Both the position numbers and the translations under genes were made by a program. Positions 1,099-42,257 of a stretch of DNA of 43,526 bases are shown here, piece after piece; position 1 is the first letter of the stretch, and the number at the start of each line of letters is the position of its first letter. The stretch spans positions 153-43,678 of the forward strand of contig CAYHHR010000004.1 of the NCBI GenBank assembly GCA_964356495.1. Reading direction: 5' to 3'. This stretch comes from an uncultured Gammaproteobacteria bacterium (GTDB taxonomy: Bacteria > Patescibacteriota > Patescibacteriia > Magasanikbacterales > GWA2-37-8). The notes beneath the pieces were generated by a model. It did no database searches, had not been told where the DNA came from, and saw only the letters and a program-made list of their open reading frames with translations.

Positions 1099-1107
1099 TG
1101 TGGATAA
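1099..1107. promoter_or_regulatory. Consensus DnaA box
   Basis: TGTGGATAA (reverse complement of TTATCCACA) just upstream of the helicase promoter; single copy. Confidence 0.5.
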
Positions 1108-1117
1108 CTTTTGCCAT

Positions 1118-1146
1118 TTGAACAATGAGGATTTTCGGACTATAAT
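1118..1146 (+). promoter_or_regulatory. Sigma70-type promoter for the helicase gene
   Basis: TTGAAC-17 nt-TATAAT, 10 nt before ATG 1157. Confidence 0.75.
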
Positions 1147-1156
1147 AACGCCACCT

Positions 1157-4100
1157 ATGACAGAAAAACGAAAAATGAATCACGCGCAGAATGAAGCTGT
1201 CAAATATACTGACGGCCCGCTTCTGATTGTCGCTGGCGCCGGGACCGGTAAGACGACCGTTATCGCCAATAAAATCGGTTACTTGCTGGAGAATGACCTC
1301 GCGAAACCGGAGGAAATTTTGGCCTTAACTTTCACCGACAAAGCGGCCGAAGAAATGCAAACGCGCGTCGATGAAATTATCGATACTGGTTATACCGATC
1401 TTCAGATCTCTACTTTTCATTCTTTTTGCCAGCGCATCCTCGAACACCACGCCATCGACATCGGACTAAGCAACCAATTTAAACTTCTAACGCCGACGGC
1501 GGCCTGGCTCCTGATGCAAAAACATTTTCGTTCTTTCAATCTTGATTACTACCGACCGCTCGGCAATCCTTACCGCCACATCCACGAACTCCTGAAACAT
1601 TTTTCTAAATGCAAAGACGAACTCATCTCGCCCGAAGATTATCTGTTTCTCGCCGAAGCAAAAGGCAAAGAAAAAGGTGACATGGTAATCGAGGAACAAA
1701 ATCGGCTGACTGAAATTTCCAACGCCTACCACGTCTACAATCAACTCCTTCGCGATAACGCCGCCCTTGATTTTGGCGATCTGATTTATTATACGCACGA
1801 GCTGTTCAGAAAACGGCCGAATGTTTTACAAATATTTCAACAACAATATAAATATATTTTGGTCGACGAATTTCAAGACGTAAATTGGGGACAGTACGCG
1901 CTCCTGAGGCAGCTGGTGATTGGGGGCAAAGGACGGCAAACCCCACCTAACCTCCCCTTGGAAAGGGGAGGGAGCCAACCACAACTAACCGTGGTCGGCG
2001 ATGACGACCAAAGTATTTACGCTTTCCGCGGCGCCAGTGTCTCGAATATCCTTCACTTCAAAGATGATTTTCCAAAGGCAAAAGAGATCGTTTTGAACGA
2101 AAATTATCGCTCTGTTCAGCCAATTCTCGACCTTGCCTATCAGTCAATAAAAAACAATAATCCGGACCGGTTGGAAGTTAAACTCAATATAGACAAGAAA
2201 TTAATTAGCCAGCGATACCTCTCTCCAACTCTCTCCTTTGTGAAGGAGAGAGGGGACAAACCCTCGCCTCCACAGAGGAGAGGGCAGGGAGAGGTTGTTC
2301 ATATCAACGCGCCGACGCTTGATAATGAAGTCGAGGATGTGATAAATGAAATCGCCCGACTGAAAAAAATTGACCGGAAGGCCAGCTGGGATGATTTCGC
2401 GATCCTAGTCAGAGCCAACAATCACGCTGATCCTTTCATCGGCGCGCTTGAGCGGCACGGTCTGCCATACGAATTTTTGTCGTCCGCCGGATTGTTCCGA
2501 CAAAATATTGTTTTGGATTGTCTGGCATTCCTCCGAATTTTAAATAATTATCACATCGATGCCGCCTGGTATAGATTATTATGCCTGCCTTTTTTAAATT
2601 TCAAAGAAAGCGATCTGCAAAAACTAACTCATTTCGCGAAACAAAAATCAATTCCTTATTATGCCGCCTTGAAACGCGGCCGTGAACTCGATTTATCCGA
2701 AGGAGGACTAAAGACGTGCGACACGCTCATCGCGCTGGCGCATGAGGAGATGCAAAAAACACGGACCGACAAGCCATCCGCCCTGCTCGTGGCATTTCTT
2801 GAAAAAATCGGCTATCTGAAATTTTTGGTCGACGAAGAAAAATCCGGCAATCGCGAGTCAAACCGGCGAACTCATCACCTGACGCAATTTTTTGAATTTT
2901 TAAACGAATTCGAAACAACTTCCCCCGATCATCGATTAGTAAATTTCCTCGAGCATTTCGAACTTCTCTCCGAAGCGGGGGAGAAGGGAAGCATGAGCCA
3001 GCCCTCCGACACGCCGGACTCGATCAATATTATGACAATCCACGGTTCCAAAGGATTGGAATTCAAATACGTCTTCGTGGTCAATCTGGTCGAGGATCGT
3101 TTCCCGAGCCGACGCCGTGGCGAGGCGATCGAAATTCCAGTTGAGTTGGTAAAAGAAAAACTTCCCGAGGGCGATAGTCATATCGAGGAAGAACGGCGTT
3201 TATTCTATGTCGCGGTGACCAGAGCGAAAGATCGCCTCTACCTTACGAGCGCCAACGACTACGGCGGCGAACGCGCGAAGAAAATCAGCCGTTTTTTGAA
3301 TGAGCTCGGCTACCACGCTTCCGATGAAGAAAAAAAGAAATTCGAACTTAAAACCACCGAGAAAATTCCTGAAAAAAAGGGTGAGTTTATTTTTGATCTG
3401 CCAAAGTCATTTTCATTTTCGCAAATCCGCTCTTATGATACCTGTCCGTACAAATACAAACTTTCCTCGATTTTAAAAATCCCAACCAAAGGCTCTGGCG
3501 TTCTTAGTTTCGGCTCCTCTATTCACAATACGTTGCTTCATTTTTATTCCAAAGTGAAAGAGCTGAACGAAGTCCAACAAGTGTCATTGTTCGACAAACC
3601 GTTGCCACAAAAAACTTCCTCAGATAAAATTAAGGTCCCGTCACTCGATGAACTGTTGGAAATGTATGAAAAGGATTGGATAGACGATTGGTATCGCGAT
3701 GAGCAACAGCGAGAATTATATTTTAAAAAAGGCAAAGAACTGCTGAAATTATTTTACTCGAAAAATGAAAACAACTGGAACATTCCGGCGGAAATTGAGA
3801 AATCATTCCGCATTAAAATCGGACCATACCTCGTGAAAGGGAGAATCGACCGCATCGACAAAAATAACGACGGCGGAATTGAGATTATTGACTACAAAAC
3901 CGGTAAAAGCAAGGATAAACTCACCGCCGAGGATAAGGAACAGCTACTGATATACCAAATTGTTTTTGAGCAGGTCAGAGAGCTGGGAGAACTCGGCAAA
4001 CCAAGTAAATTAACTTTTTATTATCTCGAAGACGACCTCAGGACTTCCTTCATCGGCGAACCAAAAGACCTGGAAAAATTACAAAAAAAACTGCTCGGAA

Positions 4101-4198
4101 CCATGGACAAAATTTACGAAAAGAATTTTACAGCGACGCCGAGCCAGTTCGCCTGCGGATTTTGCGACTTTAAGGAAATTTGCGAGTACCGTGTATGA
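1157..4198 (+). CDS. UvrD/PcrA-family SF1 helicase fused to a C-terminal PD-(D/E)XK nuclease with Fe-S-type cysteines
   Basis: AGAGTGKT, LTFTDKAA, VDEFQD, VGDDDQSIYAFRGA, NYRS, TIHGSKGLEF, EEERRLFYVAVTRA; C-terminal CPYKY, GRIDRID, IIDYKTG, CGFCDFKEIC. Start moved to ATG 1157, downstream of the promoter. Confidence 0.92.
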   Translation: MTEKRKMNHAQNEAVKYTDGPLLIVAGAGTGKTTVIANKIGYLLENDLAKPEEILALTFTDKAAEEMQTRVDEIIDTGYTDLQISTFHSFCQRILEHHAIDIGLSNQFKLLTPTAAWLLMQKHFRSFNLDYYRPLGNPYRHIHELLKHFSKCKDELISPEDYLFLAEAKGKEKGDMVIEEQNRLTEISNAYHVYNQLLRDNAALDFGDLIYYTHELFRKRPNVLQIFQQQYKYILVDEFQDVNWGQYALLRQLVIGGKGRQTPPNLPLERGGSQPQLTVVGDDDQSIYAFRGASVSNILHFKDDFPKAKEIVLNENYRSVQPILDLAYQSIKNNNPDRLEVKLNIDKKLISQRYLSPTLSFVKERGDKPSPPQRRGQGEVVHINAPTLDNEVEDVINEIARLKKIDRKASWDDFAILVRANNHADPFIGALERHGLPYEFLSSAGLFRQNIVLDCLAFLRILNNYHIDAAWYRLLCLPFLNFKESDLQKLTHFAKQKSIPYYAALKRGRELDLSEGGLKTCDTLIALAHEEMQKTRTDKPSALLVAFLEKIGYLKFLVDEEKSGNRESNRRTHHLTQFFEFLNEFETTSPDHRLVNFLEHFELLSEAGEKGSMSQPSDTPDSINIMTIHGSKGLEFKYVFVVNLVEDRFPSRRRGEAIEIPVELVKEKLPEGDSHIEEERRLFYVAVTRAKDRLYLTSANDYGGERAKKISRFLNELGYHASDEEKKKFELKTTEKIPEKKGEFIFDLPKSFSFSQIRSYDTCPYKYKLSSILKIPTKGSGVLSFGSSIHNTLLHFYSKVKELNEVQQVSLFDKPLPQKTSSDKIKVPSLDELLEMYEKDWIDDWYRDEQQRELYFKKGKELLKLFYSKNENNWNIPAEIEKSFRIKIGPYLVKGRIDRIDKNNDGGIEIIDYKTGKSKDKLTAEDKEQLLIYQIVFEQVRELGELGKPSKLTFYYLEDDLRTSFIGEPKDLEKLQKKLLGTMDKIYEKNFTATPSQFACGFCDFKEICEYRV
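1926..1975 (+). repeat. GC-rich palindromic element (family A) in frame in the helicase
   Basis: Stem CCTCCCCTT-gga-AAGGGGAGG; 49/50 identical to the reverse complement of 19198-19247. Confidence 0.92.
2217..2295. repeat. Double-hairpin palindromic element (family A) in frame in the helicase
   Basis: ACCTCTC...GAGAGGT termini and two internal hairpins; 2260-2295 is 35/36 identical to 42718-42753. Confidence 0.9.
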
Positions 4199-17969: not shown

Positions 17970-19478
17970 CTAGAGCTTCCCGAGCGCAATTTCTATTCTT
18001 CTGATCGACTCATCTTTTCCAATCGCCTCCGCGATTTCAAATGGCCCCGGGGAATTCGGTTGTCCGGAAAGCGCCACGCGCCAGGGCCAGAGCACACTGC
18101 CGTTTGAATAGCCGTTTTTCACCACCCACTCCCCTACCGATTTCTCCAGATCAGATTTATTCCAATTATTTTCTTTGACGTCGGACAAAAATTTATGAAC
18201 TTCCGGCAAAATTTTCCGCGCTTCTTCGATTGAACCTTTCTTCCAAACCAAAAGCTCCTTTTCATACCCCGGAAGCTTCAAGGCAAACGCCAGCGCCGCC
18301 GGCAATTCAGCAAGAGTGGTCACGCGTTCGCGTTCCAAAGAAATTATTTTTTCGAGCCGTTCTGAATTAACTCCTCCATTAAAATAATCTAAACTTCTGC
18401 CGGCCAATTCAGCGTCAGACAACTTTTTTATATATTCCTTATTAAACCAATTTAATTTATCAACATTAAACACCGCTCCAGTTTTGTTTACTTTTGAGAG
18501 ATTGAATTCCTTAACCAACTCATCCAACGAAAAAATTTCCCGCTCATCGCCAGGATTCCAACCAAGAAAGGCGACGAAATTCACCAGGGCCTCCGGTAAA
18601 TAGCCATTCTTTTGGTAATCAGCTACCGCGACGTCACCTTGCCGTTTACTTAACTTCGATTTATCGGCGTTAAGCAAAAGCGGCAAATGCGCAAACTCGG
18701 GCGCGTTCCAACCAAAACATTTATATAGTTGTATATGCTTTGGCGTACTGCTGATCCACTCGTCGCCACGAATTACGTGCGTGATTTCCATCAGATGATC
18801 ATCGACGACTACCGCCAGATGATAGGTTGGAAATCCGTCCGACTTCATCAAAACCTGATCATCTACCAAAGCATTTTTTATTTTTACCTCGCCATGGATT
18901 AAATCCTTGAAAATCGTCTCACCTTCTTTTGGCATTTTCAGACGTACCACATGATTCTCCCCGGCCACGATTTTCTTTTTTGCTTCATCGCTGCTGACAG
19001 TTTTCAAACATTGCTGATCATAACCCGTAGGCTGTTTATTTTGTTGCTGAGTTTCACGAAGTTTTTGCAAACGATCAGGCGTACAGAAACAATAATACGC
19101 ACTCCCCTTCTCCAGAAGTTCTTCGGCAAATTTTTTATAGATATCTAGACGTTCTGACTGAACATACGGCCCCTTTTCACCATTCTGAACAATCTTCGCT
19201 CCCTCCCCTTTCCAAGGGGAGGCTAGGTGGGGTTTGCCGTCCTTTGCGACCTCGCCACTCAACATAACACCCCCATCCGGCACAATACCAGCCCAATAAA
19301 GAGACTTCAAAATATTTTCAGTTCCGTCCGCCACGAACCGCTCCCGATCGGTATCCTCGATACGCAACAAAAATTTTCCGCCCTGATTTTTCGCGAATAA
19401 ATACGAATACAAAGCGGTACGAAGACCGCCGACATGAAGATAACCGGTTGGGCTGGGAGCAAAACGGGTGCGGATCAC
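17970..19478 (-). CDS. gltX: Glutamyl-tRNA synthetase
   Basis: IRTRFAPSPTGYLHVG, RIEDTD, KLSKR; likely GTG start 19478 in a GTGA overlap with the upstream stop. Confidence 0.96.
   Translation of the reverse strand: MIRTRFAPSPTGYLHVGGLRTALYSYLFAKNQGGKFLLRIEDTDRERFVADGTENILKSLYWAGIVPDGGVMLSGEVAKDGKPHLASPWKGEGAKIVQNGEKGPYVQSERLDIYKKFAEELLEKGSAYYCFCTPDRLQKLRETQQQNKQPTGYDQQCLKTVSSDEAKKKIVAGENHVVRLKMPKEGETIFKDLIHGEVKIKNALVDDQVLMKSDGFPTYHLAVVVDDHLMEITHVIRGDEWISSTPKHIQLYKCFGWNAPEFAHLPLLLNADKSKLSKRQGDVAVADYQKNGYLPEALVNFVAFLGWNPGDEREIFSLDELVKEFNLSKVNKTGAVFNVDKLNWFNKEYIKKLSDAELAGRSLDYFNGGVNSERLEKIISLERERVTTLAELPAALAFALKLPGYEKELLVWKKGSIEEARKILPEVHKFLSDVKENNWNKSDLEKSVGEWVVKNGYSNGSVLWPWRVALSGQPNSPGPFEIAEAIGKDESIRRIEIALGKL
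19198..19247 (-). repeat. Family A palindromic element in frame in gltX
   Basis: 49/50 identical to 1926-1975; encodes AKDGKPHLASPWKGEGA. Confidence 0.92.
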
Positions 19479-20269
19479 ACTTTTTCTTTTAAAATTAAAT
19501 AAGAAAATTTCAGCGTCGCGTTGAGAATTCTGCCGAAACGCCTCGGCTGTTTCCACAAACGATACAGCCATTCTAAACCAATTTGACGCATAAGTCTAGG
19601 AGCGCGCCGAATAAATTCGGACAAATAATCAAACGCGCCGCCTACCCCCATGCCGATTTTTACGCTCGGCATTTTTACTAAATTTTCGGCCAGCCACTTC
19701 TCCTGTTTCCCCATGCCGAACGCCACAAACAAAATATCAGGCTTTGTTTCATTAATTTTTTTAATTGAAAATTGATCATTGGAATTTGATTGGAAATTGG
19801 AAATTGGAAATTGGAAATTTTCGTCAATAGTAGGCCCTTTGTCATACCCAGCAATTTTTAATCCAGGAAATTTTTTTAATAAATTTTCACTCGCCATTTT
19901 GACGACCTCATCGCTCAGGCTCCCCAATAAATAGATTGAATACTTTTTTTGTTCAGCGAGTTTGCACAGATCAACCATAAAATCAACTCCGGTGATTCGG
20001 TCCAACCCACCCCTACCCCGCCCAAGCGGGGAATTGTTTTTTCCAAAATACCGCCTGGCGAGCCATAGACCAAACCCATCGCAGAGATTCAGCGATCCCC
20101 TATTTAGAACTTCTCTAAAATACACATCTGTTTGCGCCATAACCAGCATTTCCGGGTTAGGTGTAAATATCAGGTGCTGACCGCTGGAAAAAATAAATGA
20201 TTCGGCTTTTTTGACAGCCTCACCCCCTGAAAAATCATCGATACGTATACCCAAAATAGTATTATTCAT
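19475..20269 (-). CDS. WecB/TagA/CpsF family glycosyltransferase
   Basis: TPNPE, RITGVD, PDILFVAFGMGKQE, GVGGAFD, GLEWLYRL..QPRR. Confidence 0.93.
   Translation of the reverse strand: MNNTILGIRIDDFSGGEAVKKAESFIFSSGQHLIFTPNPEMLVMAQTDVYFREVLNRGSLNLCDGFGLWLARRYFGKNNSPLGRGRGGLDRITGVDFMVDLCKLAEQKKYSIYLLGSLSDEVVKMASENLLKKFPGLKIAGYDKGPTIDENFQFPISNFQSNSNDQFSIKKINETKPDILFVAFGMGKQEKWLAENLVKMPSVKIGMGVGGAFDYLSEFIRRAPRLMRQIGLEWLYRLWKQPRRFGRILNATLKFSYLILKEKV
19763..19821. repeat. Heptamer tandem repeat (family B) in frame
   Basis: GGAAATT x4 perfect (19792-19819) plus degenerate units; encodes NFQFPISNFQSNSNDQFSI. Confidence 0.88.
20002..20036. repeat. Family A palindromic element in frame in the TagA-like gene
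   Basis: 35/35 identical to 42431-42465; hairpin CCCCGC-ccaa-GCGGGG; encodes NSPLGRGRGGL. Confidence 0.92.
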
Positions 20270-40325: not shown

Positions 40326-42257
40326 TTATTCTAGGATGGCTTTAATACGGCGAACACCGGCGCCAACCGCTTCTTCCTTGATAATTTTAAATTTACCGAG
40401 CAGGCCGGTATGCTCGACGTGGGGGCCGCCACAAACCTCGCGGCTAAACGTCGGAGATGTCGGATCTGCTACCGCAGGACGCTCAGCGTCCCCAACCGTG
40501 TAAACCTTAACTTTGTCCTGATACTTATTCTCGAAGAGCCCGATCGCGCCTTTTGCTTTCGCGTCCTTAAAACTCATTTCTTCGCAAATCACGCGGTAAT
40601 CATTATCGATAGCGTCATTGACCAAATCCTGAACCTTTGCTAATTCCTCAGCCGTCATTTTCTGCGGATGACTAAAATCAAAACGCATGCGTTCCGTCGT
40701 GATGTTGCTCCCCTTCTGATTCGCGTGCGATCCAAGCACATTGTGAAGCGCGGCGTGCAATAGGTGCGTGGCAGTATGATATTTAGTGGACATCTCACTA
40801 TGATCCGCCATACCTCCGGCAAATTTCTGTTCAGCGCCGGCGCGAGATGTCTCCTGATGCTGTTTAAACGCTTCCTCAAATCCGGCCACATCCACCGAGA
40901 GACTGTTCTCGAGCGCGAGTTCCTGCGTCATTTCAAGTGGAAATCCGTAAGTATCATAAAGTTTGAAGGCATGCCTCCCGGAAATTTCTTTGATAACAAA
41001 TCCAGTCTTTTCGAACGAAGTTCGGAAACCGCCGATGAGGCGGTCAAATTCCTTGAGGCCCTGTTCAACAGTATTTCTAAATTTACTTTCCTCACCTTCA
41101 ATCTCAGTCAACACAAAATCCTGATTCCTTTTTAACTCCGGATAAACCCCACCCCCTGCCCCTGCCCCTCCCCTATTAGGGGAGGGATTGAGGGAGGGGT
41201 CGGAAAATATTTTAATTACTTTCTTCGCGACCTCGCCCGCAAAATTTTCCTTGATGCCAAGTTGTCGGCCATAACGCACGGCGCGTCGGATTAATCGGCG
41301 AACCAAATATCCCTGATCGGTATTTGATGGACCAATCCCGCGATCGTCGCCAATGATCATCGTCGCGGTACGGATATGGTCAGCGATAATTCGCATCGAA
41401 CGAGTTACATTTCCACCCTCTATATATTCATGTCCGGAAAGATCCTGAATCGTCTGTATAAGCGGCCAAAAAGTATCAATTTGAAAAACATCGGCAAAAC
41501 CATTTAAAACCATCAGCGTGCGCTCAAGACCCATGCCGGTATCAACATTTTTTTGTTTTAACGGTTCATAAACATATTGGTCATTGGAATTTGGGATTTG
41601 TGATTTCACTTTATTGTACTGCATGAAGACGTCATTCCAAATCTCCAACCAATTATCCTCGTCATTGCCTGGATTACTACCAGCTGGCGGAAGTTCGGTC
41701 TTCCCTGCCCAATAAAACATCTCCGTGTCAGGCCCGCACGGACCGGTCTGACCAGCCGGCCCCCACCAATTATTTTTTCTTGGTAAATAGGCAATTCGTT
41801 CCTCTGGCAAGCCGAGCGACATCCAAATTTCAGCCGCTTCATCATCACGCGGAATGTTAATTTCTTTTTCCCCGGCAAAAACCGAGACTGCCAATTTGCG
41901 TTTATCTAAATTTAAATTTGCCGGCGAAGTCAAAAATTCCCAACTCCATTTGATCGCGTCTTCCTTGAAATAATCGCCCAGCGACCAGTTTCCCATCATT
42001 TCAAAAAAGGTGTCATGGCGATTGTCGCCGACTTCATCGATATCCTGAGTGCGAATGCATTTTTGGACACTAGCCAGGCGCTTGCCGCCCGGATGTTTTG
42101 CCCCTAGCAGATACGGCACGAGCGGATGCATGCCGGCGGTGGTAAATAATACCGTCGGATCGTTCTCCGGAATAACCGAAGCAGAAGGGATAATGGTATG
42201 TTCCTTTGATCTGAAAAATTCGAGATATTTTTTCCGAAGTTCCTCTGAAGTTAGCAT
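40326..42257 (-). CDS. alaS: Alanyl-tRNA synthetase (short form without C-Ala domain)
   Basis: DPTVLFTTAGM, TFFEMMGNWS, DTGMGLER, HTATHLL, CGGPH, GVRRIKA. Confidence 0.96.
   Translation of the reverse strand: MLTSEELRKKYLEFFRSKEHTIIPSASVIPENDPTVLFTTAGMHPLVPYLLGAKHPGGKRLASVQKCIRTQDIDEVGDNRHDTFFEMMGNWSLGDYFKEDAIKWSWEFLTSPANLNLDKRKLAVSVFAGEKEINIPRDDEAAEIWMSLGLPEERIAYLPRKNNWWGPAGQTGPCGPDTEMFYWAGKTELPPAGSNPGNDEDNWLEIWNDVFMQYNKVKSQIPNSNDQYVYEPLKQKNVDTGMGLERTLMVLNGFADVFQIDTFWPLIQTIQDLSGHEYIEGGNVTRSMRIIADHIRTATMIIGDDRGIGPSNTDQGYLVRRLIRRAVRYGRQLGIKENFAGEVAKKVIKIFSDPSLNPSPNRGGAGAGGGVYPELKRNQDFVLTEIEGEESKFRNTVEQGLKEFDRLIGGFRTSFEKTGFVIKEISGRHAFKLYDTYGFPLEMTQELALENSLSVDVAGFEEAFKQHQETSRAGAEQKFAGGMADHSEMSTKYHTATHLLHAALHNVLGSHANQKGSNITTERMRFDFSHPQKMTAEELAKVQDLVNDAIDNDYRVICEEMSFKDAKAKGAIGLFENKYQDKVKVYTVGDAERPAVADPTSPTFSREVCGGPHVEHTGLLGKFKIIKEEAVGAGVRRIKAILE
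41146..41200. repeat. Family A palindromic element in frame in alaS
   Basis: ACCCC...GGGGT termini, stem CCCTCCCCT-att-AGGGGAGGG; encodes DPSLNPSPNRGGAGAGGGV. Confidence 0.88.
41577..41606. repeat. Heptamer repeat (family B) in frame in alaS
   Basis: GGTCATT GGAATTT GGGATTT GTGATTT; encodes KSQIPNSNDQ. Confidence 0.8.

Follow-up and report, generated by a model that had tools for sequence, protein, structure and literature searches.

In-frame copies of a triplex-motif repeat arm in a helicase gene and gltX of a patescibacterial genome

Two copies of one repeat arm in the window

The window is a 43,526-nt stretch of the genome of an uncultured groundwater bacterium, and a 50-nt repeat lies in frame inside two of its genes. 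The first host gene (1100..4198, + strand) is a 1032-codon open reading frame (ORF) for a UvrD/PcrA-type helicase fused to a PD-(D/E)XK nuclease domain, with Pfam matches to UvrD-helicase, UvrD_C, and PDDEXK_1; the database form of the protein begins at residue 20 of this ORF. The second (17970..19571, - strand) is gltX, a 533-codon ORF for glutamyl-tRNA synthetase (GluRS) with the Pfam domains tRNA-synt_1c and Anticodon_2. The closest homologues of both proteins carry Candidatus Magasanikbacteria or Patescibacteria names. The genome, here called G000, comprises 850,269 bases in 44 contigs with 46% G+C and is 96% complete; the window is its contig C4.

A preliminary description of the window had claimed that the same 50-bp DNA occurs twice with one base changed, that it is read in two different frames, and that its third sense frame is stopped in both copies. 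All three points are borne out. The 50-mer at 1926-1975 (+) and the reverse complement of 19198-19247 differ at a single position, which falls within CCTAACC in the helicase copy and CCTAGCC in the gltX copy, and no such match between 50-mers arises in any of 100 dinucleotide-preserving shuffles of the window. The helicase reads its copy in phase 1 as GKGRQTPPNLPLERGGS, between DEFQD and VVGDDDQ, and gltX reads its copy in phase 0 as AKDGKPHLASPWKGEGA, directly before GPYVQSER. The third sense frame would give QRTANPT*PPLGKGRE, and its stop codon, TAA in the helicase and TAG in GluRS, contains the sole mismatch. The 50-nt unit of that description stands for the shared core and fails for the insertion as a whole, which has a net length of 51 nt (17 codons) in both the helicase gene (1925..1975, + strand) and gltX (19197..19247, - strand).

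Each copy is a solo arm of type A from a repeat family with two arm types, A (itself of two subtypes) and B. The 50-mer is thus one arm of a larger selfish repeat that carries a nuclease gene, a context that the preliminary description had missed. The helicase arm contains a 9-bp hairpin (1951..1971, + strand), predicted in both RNA and DNA, in which CCTCCCCTT pairs with AAGGGGAGG across a GGA loop. The mirror tract CCCCACC (1941-1947, + strand) lies 5' of this hairpin and is followed by the linker TAA that stops the third frame. The gltX arm has the same hairpin at 19202..19222 (- strand), with the mirror tract and a TAG linker directly 5' of it. The ends of the core (GCAAAGG...GGGAGC) are identical in these two copies and in a third within the gene for RecG, and the copy in the ATP synthase gamma gene (AtpG) has two substitutions there. 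In GluRS the match to the interior of full-length elements continues upstream for three further bases (GTC).

A collapsed or chimeric repeat in the assembly could in principle create such a pair, and we give this explanation next to no weight. Logan contigs do break inside the repeat, and their summed depth rises over it. Nevertheless, each insert has the same gene on its two sides, with order and frame preserved relative to orthologues; the repeat spans no more than 50 nt; and similar inserts occur in other assemblies. Contigs of X1 and X4 lead out of unique gltX sequence and cover 27-30 nt of the arm, just under the 31-nt rule for bridging; run X1 is possibly the window's own source sample, and this junction evidence comes from Logan contigs rather than reads. 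The insert-free joint is not listed among the Logan contigs.

Loop placement, frame use, and a probable reading-frame filter

Structure models place both inserts in low-confidence coil loops, in agreement with the earlier suggestion that they might be disordered surface loops. HMMER alignments of GluRS to solved structures split at the insert, between Thermus thermophilus residues 73 and 74. In an AlphaFold2 model built from 119 sequences (mean predicted local distance difference test score, pLDDT, 91.9), the insert is modelled as coil at the tip of a beta-hairpin formed by strands 100-104 and 127-130, and residues 111-120 have a mean pLDDT of 53. For the helicase, the gap in the alignment to PcrA falls between the helix that follows motif II and the strand of motif III. 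The helicase model (117 sequences, mean pLDDT 86.0) falls below a pLDDT of 50 only at residues 2-4, 260-271, 289-293, and 359-376. The second of these segments is the arm insert, and the last is another in-frame repeat insert in the same gene (2213..2299, + strand), read as LSPTLSFVKERGDKPSPPQRRGQGEV. Alignments to the PDB skip the arm insert in GluRS and in the helicase. According to the models, then, both arms of the window entered surface loops.

The same loops are occupied in other lineages. Twenty of the 117 helicase orthologues carry an insert at the same spot between motifs II and III; related arms and full doublets are among these inserts, as are repeats of unrelated families. The corresponding GluRS loop segment is 25-31 amino acids long in 90 of 119 sequences and at least 40 in seven, our query included; one of these long-loop sequences carries a related arm in the same frame. 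A longer, unrelated-looking insert rich in proline and glycine occupies the motif II-III site in the helicase orthologue of genome G015 (locus L037). A substantial minority of the 117 aligned helicase sequences are also longer at the site of the LSPTLSFVKERGDKPSPPQRRGQGEV insert. That insert comes from another triplex-hairpin family, whose copies flank a DUF559 nuclease gene at C21:16011 of G000.

Comparison with insert-free orthologues defines what was gained. The 17 residues are absent from the GluRS orthologues of G001 (same genus, 76-79% identical), G003, and G015, and from the helicase orthologues of G003 and G022. Codon-threaded alignments (GluRS against G001 and G003, helicase against G003 and G022) give a net gain of 17 codons, or 51 nt, in both genes. 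No helicase orthologue was recovered from G001 or G002, and the G002 GluRS (G002:C172, locus L032) ends with its contig at residue 249, so it affords no view of the insert site.

Tabulating frame and orientation for the eight solo A arms that lie well inside conserved G000 genes reveals that all three sense frames are in use. Phase 1 is read in the helicase, RecG, and a second UvrD-type helicase (UvrD2), phase 0 in GluRS and AtpG, and phase 2 in UvrB, a reverse transcriptase (RT), and UvrA (arm at C11:6118). All eight arms are in sense orientation, as is every intragenic arm of the congener G002. Phase 2 is the frame that is stopped in the window's two copies, and the UvrB, RT, and UvrA arms all have CCCAAC in place of CCTAAC or CCTAGC, a T>C change that removes the stop. 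Only four of 18 arms of the A1 type are free of the stop, and all four are read in phase 2; the fourth (CCTACC) belongs to a nuclease cassette on contig C2, where the nuclease ORF reads through it. The three sense frames yield three unrelated peptides from one DNA, and since all of them are used across the eight hosts, no single peptide can be the conserved unit. Three-frame use together with stop rescue shows that the target of selection is the nucleic acid, with the protein only filtered.

Net lengths lead in the same direction. All six that are measurable against insert-free orthologues are multiples of three: 51 nt in GluRS and in the helicase, 42 nt in RecG and in UvrB, and, at the UvrD2 site, 51 nt in G000, 48 nt in G002, and 111 nt in another Patescibacteria-type record (locus L064), which has a full in-frame doublet there. 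Lengths in threes and stop-free frames fit a filter on ORF integrity, as the preliminary description had proposed, and they speak against both excision from the RNA and skipping by the ribosome. The bypass alternative, in which the inserts are excised from the mRNA or skipped by the ribosome and so remain untranslated, draws on a real resemblance. The T4 gene 60 gap and the yeast mitochondrial byps, as far as the available text of 10.1101/2022.08.31.505936 describes them, are likewise short (27-55 nt), GC-rich, hairpin-forming, and mobile inserts in essential genes, close in size to the 50-nt arm. Those inserts differ in that they break the frame or carry stops; here the inserts are in frame and stop-free, and reading through is enough. 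Bypassed or excised inserts would escape both constraints, yet no copy has a stop in the frame used, and the copies in the third frame have the substitution that removes it. We therefore consider the bypass explanation scarcely tenable.

A second alternative holds that the inserted peptides are adaptive protein modules under selection. The repeated occupation of the same loops in many lineages would be compatible with it, and protein evolution by in-frame palindromic elements has been proposed for Rickettsia in the accessible part of the review PMC10969869. It is nonetheless very unlikely here, as one DNA gives three peptides, these are about one-third proline and glycine and are modelled as low-confidence coil, and the compared orthologues manage without them. 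High proline and glycine content is a property of every frame of the arm (5-6 per 16 residues in all six), because the arm is built of C-runs and G-runs.

The explanation that we favor, and regard as likely when taken as a whole, is that a selfish triplex-motif arm inserted in frame into surface loops, is translated there, and is kept subject to a filter on the ORF. Solo A arms would have entered one surface loop each of GluRS and the helicase with a net gain of 51 nt, and the inserts are most likely translated as part of the protein; if so, GEVAKDGKPHLASPWKGEGAKIV and VIGGKGRQTPPNLPLERGGSQPQ are the peptide stretches that span the gltX and helicase inserts. Tolerance would stem from the openness of four of the six arm frames, two of the three antisense frames among them, and from the proline and glycine content of each. 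Selection would then keep only copies with a net length in multiples of three and no stop in the frame used, and the near-identity of the copies would reflect copying of, or constraint on, the DNA and not the peptide. The underlying observation is real, and the inference drawn from it in the preliminary description is supported.

Related elements also lie in frame elsewhere. Full doublets of the same or a related family are read in frame in two loci from other Patescibacteria-type records, with two doublets in a UvrD-type helicase of L064 and two in a 529-codon ORF of L074 that also contains the repeat peptide RSFATAQDD. Single exact matches to the arm occur in L075 and L076, whose contigs were assigned by binning to Gemmatimonadota (65% G+C, next to a stretch of Ns) and Gammaproteobacteria; either misbinning or a wider spread could explain them.

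The repeat family, its triplex-type layout, and DUF559 nucleases

An nhmmer profile of the arm finds 44 arms in G000 at E<1e-5. The commonest form is a doublet of ~125 bp composed of a reverse-complemented B arm, a 26-31-nt spacer, and an A arm. Grouping arms that score 38 bits or more yields 28 elements, namely 12 short doublets, two long pairs, and 14 solos; two of the 14 solos have a weaker partner arm, and counting these as doublets gives about 14 doublets and 12 solos. With two inverted arms of ~50 nt around a spacer, the doublets have the terminal inverted repeats of miniature inverted-repeat transposable elements. No parent element with a recognised transposase was found, the long form coding only for DUF559. 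None of the short doublets lies deep inside a G000 gene; all abut stop codons or sit just upstream of genes.

The two long pairs, each ~500 bp (C2 8549-9048 and C18 14295-14809), bracket a DUF559 ORF with inverted arms (Pfam PF04480, E 1.8e-23 and 3.9e-26). The C18 nuclease terminates in ...APQRTANPT at the TAG of its A arm, and the third frame of the arm is therefore the native frame of the nuclease C-terminus. The final ~9 codons of the nuclease gene come from the 5' half of the A arm, whose linker TAG or TAA supplies the stop codon. Among the 120 homologues listed, at least three further close ones have the same ending, and two read through into the hairpin.

Each arm consists of a pyrimidine tract, a linker of 2-5 nt, the pyrimidine strand of a 7-10-bp hairpin, which mirrors the tract, and the purine strand of that hairpin. 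A single strand of the arm could fold into an intramolecular triplex, judging from this order of blocks. The seven DUF559 genes of G000 are flanked by 14 arms, 11 of which have a full mirror tract (allowing A for T) with nine different stem sequences; the background mirror match at other offsets is 0.28. The three arms that lack one comprise a case from a direct-repeat family, a case in which the script picked a terminator hairpin, and a case with a 22-nt insertion in the linker.

This layout extends well beyond a single family. The exact TMECO pattern of Escherichia coli has no match on either strand of the 850-kb genome, and Rfam has none in the window at gathering thresholds; a generalised motif scan returns 132 motifs in G000 versus 0 in a block-shuffled genome. 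Forty-five of the 132 are deep within 34 long ORFs (ORF of at least 200 amino acids, with at least 60 on either side). Their hosts include UvrB, UvrC, RecG, RecR, SMC, DnaE, DnaX, and SecA, together with several aminoacyl-tRNA synthetases and many tRNA or rRNA modification enzymes. The intragenic motifs of all triplex-hairpin families are divided into 29 sense and 16 antisense, and the latter rule out a sense-only rule for these families as a group. In the window itself, two triplex-hairpin motifs that overlap and have CCCTCCC as their stem (41154-41198) lie in frame within the alanyl-tRNA synthetase ORF (40326-42257, - strand; Pfam tRNA-synt_2c) and are read as PSLNPSPNRGGAGAG.

Nuclease and arm vary together. 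All seven DUF559 genes are flanked by arms, six by an inverted pair of their own and the one at C21:16011 by direct repeats. Identity is 74% and 81% for DUF559 paralogues with arms in common and 35-65% for other pairs. The arm pattern is present in four of 41 related genomes (38 matches in G000, 42 in G002, and two each in G015 and G022), and each of the four belongs to the set of 10 genomes in which DUF559 matches strongly. For G001 the match is only weak, and for G003 there is none; these counts are taken from kin genomes that are not independent of one another. Among the DUF559 homologues listed, 16 of 120, from several phyla, have an arm-type tail rich in proline and glycine, versus seven of 1243 internal windows. 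A whole DUF559 cassette also lies in frame inside a Sua5/YciO/YrdC gene (G000 C21:15543-16679, - strand, locus L111), where direct copies of the family-2 repeat flank it and the ORF stays open for 379 codons to the end of the contig.

The bracketing and covariation suggest that DUF559 may mobilise or maintain the arms; their triplex fold would be what it recognises. A bolder reading, which we put forward only tentatively, is that DUF559 nucleases are the missing partner enzymes of the BoxC/PIT/TM class of repeats and that each recognises its own folded arm and copies or re-inserts it. It would fit the presence of seven nuclease-arm sets in one 850-kb genome, the colonisation of genes in any frame, and the homing-like return to the same loops. 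If true, it would define a new class of structure-guided mobile element and would provide a candidate enzyme for repeats for which Holder et al. 2015 (PMC4666352), in the part of that paper available, found neither a function nor a mobility gene. No description of a link between DUF559 and BoxC/PIT/TM repeats was found in titles, abstract openings, and term counts of the papers searched.

Alternatively, DUF559 might be a homing-type passenger on existing arms, which would then spread through host replication or repair, such as slippage or templated repair at hairpins, or through an enzyme that has escaped notice. Homing endonucleases are known among the Vsr-like nucleases (PMC3424549; 10.1101/2022.08.31.505936, both in the portions available), the same text of Holder et al. 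reports no mobility genes beside the E. coli TM repeats, and in RecG the native AAAGGA overlaps the first bases of the arm, as a microhomology-templated event would leave it. Against this alternative, the seven paralogues each have an arm sequence of their own, with likeness of nuclease tracking likeness of arm, and the arm codes for the nuclease's own C-terminus and stop. The doublet spacer, moreover, has no similarity evident by eye to the sequence beside the nuclease ORF. We find the passenger explanation rather unlikely.

Site reuse, DNA-level conservation, and comparison with known systems

That conservation concerns DNA and not peptide, as the preliminary description had argued, is supported by UvrD2 in conjunction with the use of three frames. 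By hand counts, the UvrD2 arm core is identical between G000 and G002 at 37 of 39 nt and between G000 and L064 at 38 of 39, and 12 of 13 third-codon positions are identical in each comparison. The remainder of UvrD2 is 65% (G002) and 59% (L064) identical, with third positions at 46% and 40%. From these alignments, constraint, gene conversion, or recent independent insertion from conserved master copies could each account for the identity of the core.

Intragenic copies might be kept for a host function of the DNA or RNA structure, such as pausing of replication or translation, tuning the expression of repair genes, or providing landmarks for recombination and repair, and would then be more than tolerated. 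An arm core that is almost invariant in three genomes between flanks that are 59-65% identical would suit this explanation, as would the five DNA-repair ATPases among the eight hosts and the sense orientation of all eight copies. Its difficulties are greater, and we judge it improbable. The closest relative, G001, lacks the RecG, UvrB, UvrD2, and GluRS inserts and has no arm match in addition to its weak DUF559 match; decay is under way in the AtpG copy; the category of hosts was defined post hoc; and PIT elements are without promoter or terminator activity in E. coli, according to the available sections of Holder et al. 2015 (PMC4666352).

The DNA-repair ATPases among the hosts of the arm family are UvrA, UvrB, the two UvrD-type helicases, and RecG, a category picked after the fact and with gene length uncontrolled. 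Hosts across all of the triplex-hairpin families also include UvrC, RecR, an SMC/RecF-like protein, SMC, DnaE, and DnaX.

Several observations weigh against the account of a selfish arm that is inserted, translated, and filtered, and the first group concerns where the arms are. The RecG insert is at the same codon in G000 and G002, and the UvrD2 insert is at the same site in G000, G002, and L064, yet both are absent from G001 and G003. By pairwise identity G001 is the closest relative of G000 (RecG 88%, UvrB 90%, UvrD2 71%). The insert-free UvrD2 genes of G001 and G003 have equal lengths, which together with the differing net sizes of the three inserts leans toward repeated gain at one site. 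The G000 5' flank at UvrD2 resembles the spacer-arm junction of L064, a likeness that would agree with a single ancient insertion of full length, followed by in-frame deletions and by clean losses. Chance insertion and subsequent filtering would be insufficient in either case, as either history implies a site preference or precise excision. In addition, the AtpG arm mismatches the helicase copy at eight of 50 positions, and G002 and G003 have a non-arm loop of nearly equal length at that site. A G002 ORF in L050 was considered as the AtpG orthologue and rejected at 27% identity, the true orthologue being the one with the non-arm loop.

The second group concerns the integrity of the hosts and the behavior of the arm. 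If copies frequently disrupted essential ORFs, the filter proposed in the preliminary description would be contradicted; no copy has a stop in the frame used, but one host gene, uvrA, is broken near its insert. This gene (G000 C11:5681-7600, locus L112 882-2801) contains a stop-free A arm read in phase 2 plus a second repeat, and an in-frame TAG follows six codons after the second repeat and 20 codons after the arm. The frame after the TAG (SQLINF*PIVRGRKGEY) continues into the UvrA interaction domain. The gene might be a pseudogene or be split, or the TAG might reflect strain variation or an error; not every host gene is demonstrably intact. The sense orientation of all eight arms also counts against the account, two of the three antisense frames being open as well. 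Hairpin stability relative to shuffles is modest (RNA z of -1.50 and -0.77, DNA z of -2.73 and -1.90), as scored by folding tools that count Watson-Crick and wobble pairs and have triplexes outside their scope.

Transposition chemistry is likewise not visible. No flanking direct repeat of the target-site duplication type is seen at the helicase, GluRS, RecG, and AtpG copies, where the flanks have diverged and the ends are not fixable to the base, and ends are sharp in some copies only. The role of DUF559 rests on bracketing and covariation, and the nuclease could equally well be a passenger that targets the arms.

What gives the system its wider interest is that one DNA in three frames of eight housekeeping genes, with a point change that rescues the stopped frame, amounts to a natural experiment. 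Many lineage-specific loops in such genomes may be repeat insertions, which matters for work on protein families and for structure prediction.

The repeat has relatives in layout among the TM (BoxC, PIT) repeats. These have, in order, a C-rich stem, a short loop, a G-rich stem, a 3-nt loop, and a second block in mirror image of the stem (Holder et al. 2015, PMC4666352, as far as the accessible text goes). The same text describes the E. coli TMECO repeats as "always located intergenically" and mentions no transposase or integrase nearby; it reports no function for TM repeats. Shared features are the block layout, the many near-identical copies, a patchy distribution in close relatives, and the occurrence of some palindromic doublets. 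The present repeats differ in the sequence of their stems, in that many motifs are intragenic, and in that the arms bracket DUF559 genes. By layout we place the repeat in the BoxC/PIT/TM class, and not in the E. coli family.

In RAYT systems, a gene for a Y1 (HUH) transposase is flanked by inverted copies of a REP repeat. The REP/REPIN-RAYT arrangement of singlets, inverted doublets, and a gene between inverted repeat copies is mirrored here (PMC3733652 for REPs, in the portion available). The flanked gene, unlike a RAYT, encodes a PD-(D/E)XK nuclease of the DUF559 type and not a Y1 transposase, for which G000, at 96% completeness, contains no match (PF01797), and copies here are also intragenic, a contrast with REPs drawn from the same portion of that source.

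Vsr-like homing endonucleases offer a different parallel. They include I-Bth0305I (PMC3424549 and PMC3239194) and the VSR-like replacements of Mob genes in T4-like phages (10.1101/2022.08.31.505936), as described in the parts of these sources at hand. The ORFs here have a Vsr/DUF559 PD-(D/E)XK domain, as in a homing cassette, and the same sites are occupied in separate lineages; a small nuclease of the Vsr fold in a compact mobile cassette that is able to sit inside genes is common to both. The difference, so far as those sources describe their systems, is that here there is no intron or intein, and the ends of the cassette are structured inverted repeats that multiply without the gene.

In their mode of existence, the arms come closest to the Rickettsia palindromic elements (RPEs), which are ~150 bp long and encode a conserved peptide per family (review PMC10969869 on Ogata et al. 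2000, 2002, in the text available). Both are selfish palindromic DNA in frame in unrelated housekeeping genes, read through, and found at tolerated locations in the protein. As judged against that portion of the review, the present repeat differs in its 50-nt arm, its use of three frames, its triplex-type mirror tract, its linked nuclease gene, and its host in the Patescibacteria. Our literature search found nothing specific on in-frame repeat insertions in the Candidate Phyla Radiation. The repeat works like the RPEs and is not one of them, and it extends the Rickettsia observation of selfish DNA within genes to the Candidate Phyla Radiation and to a different class of repeat.

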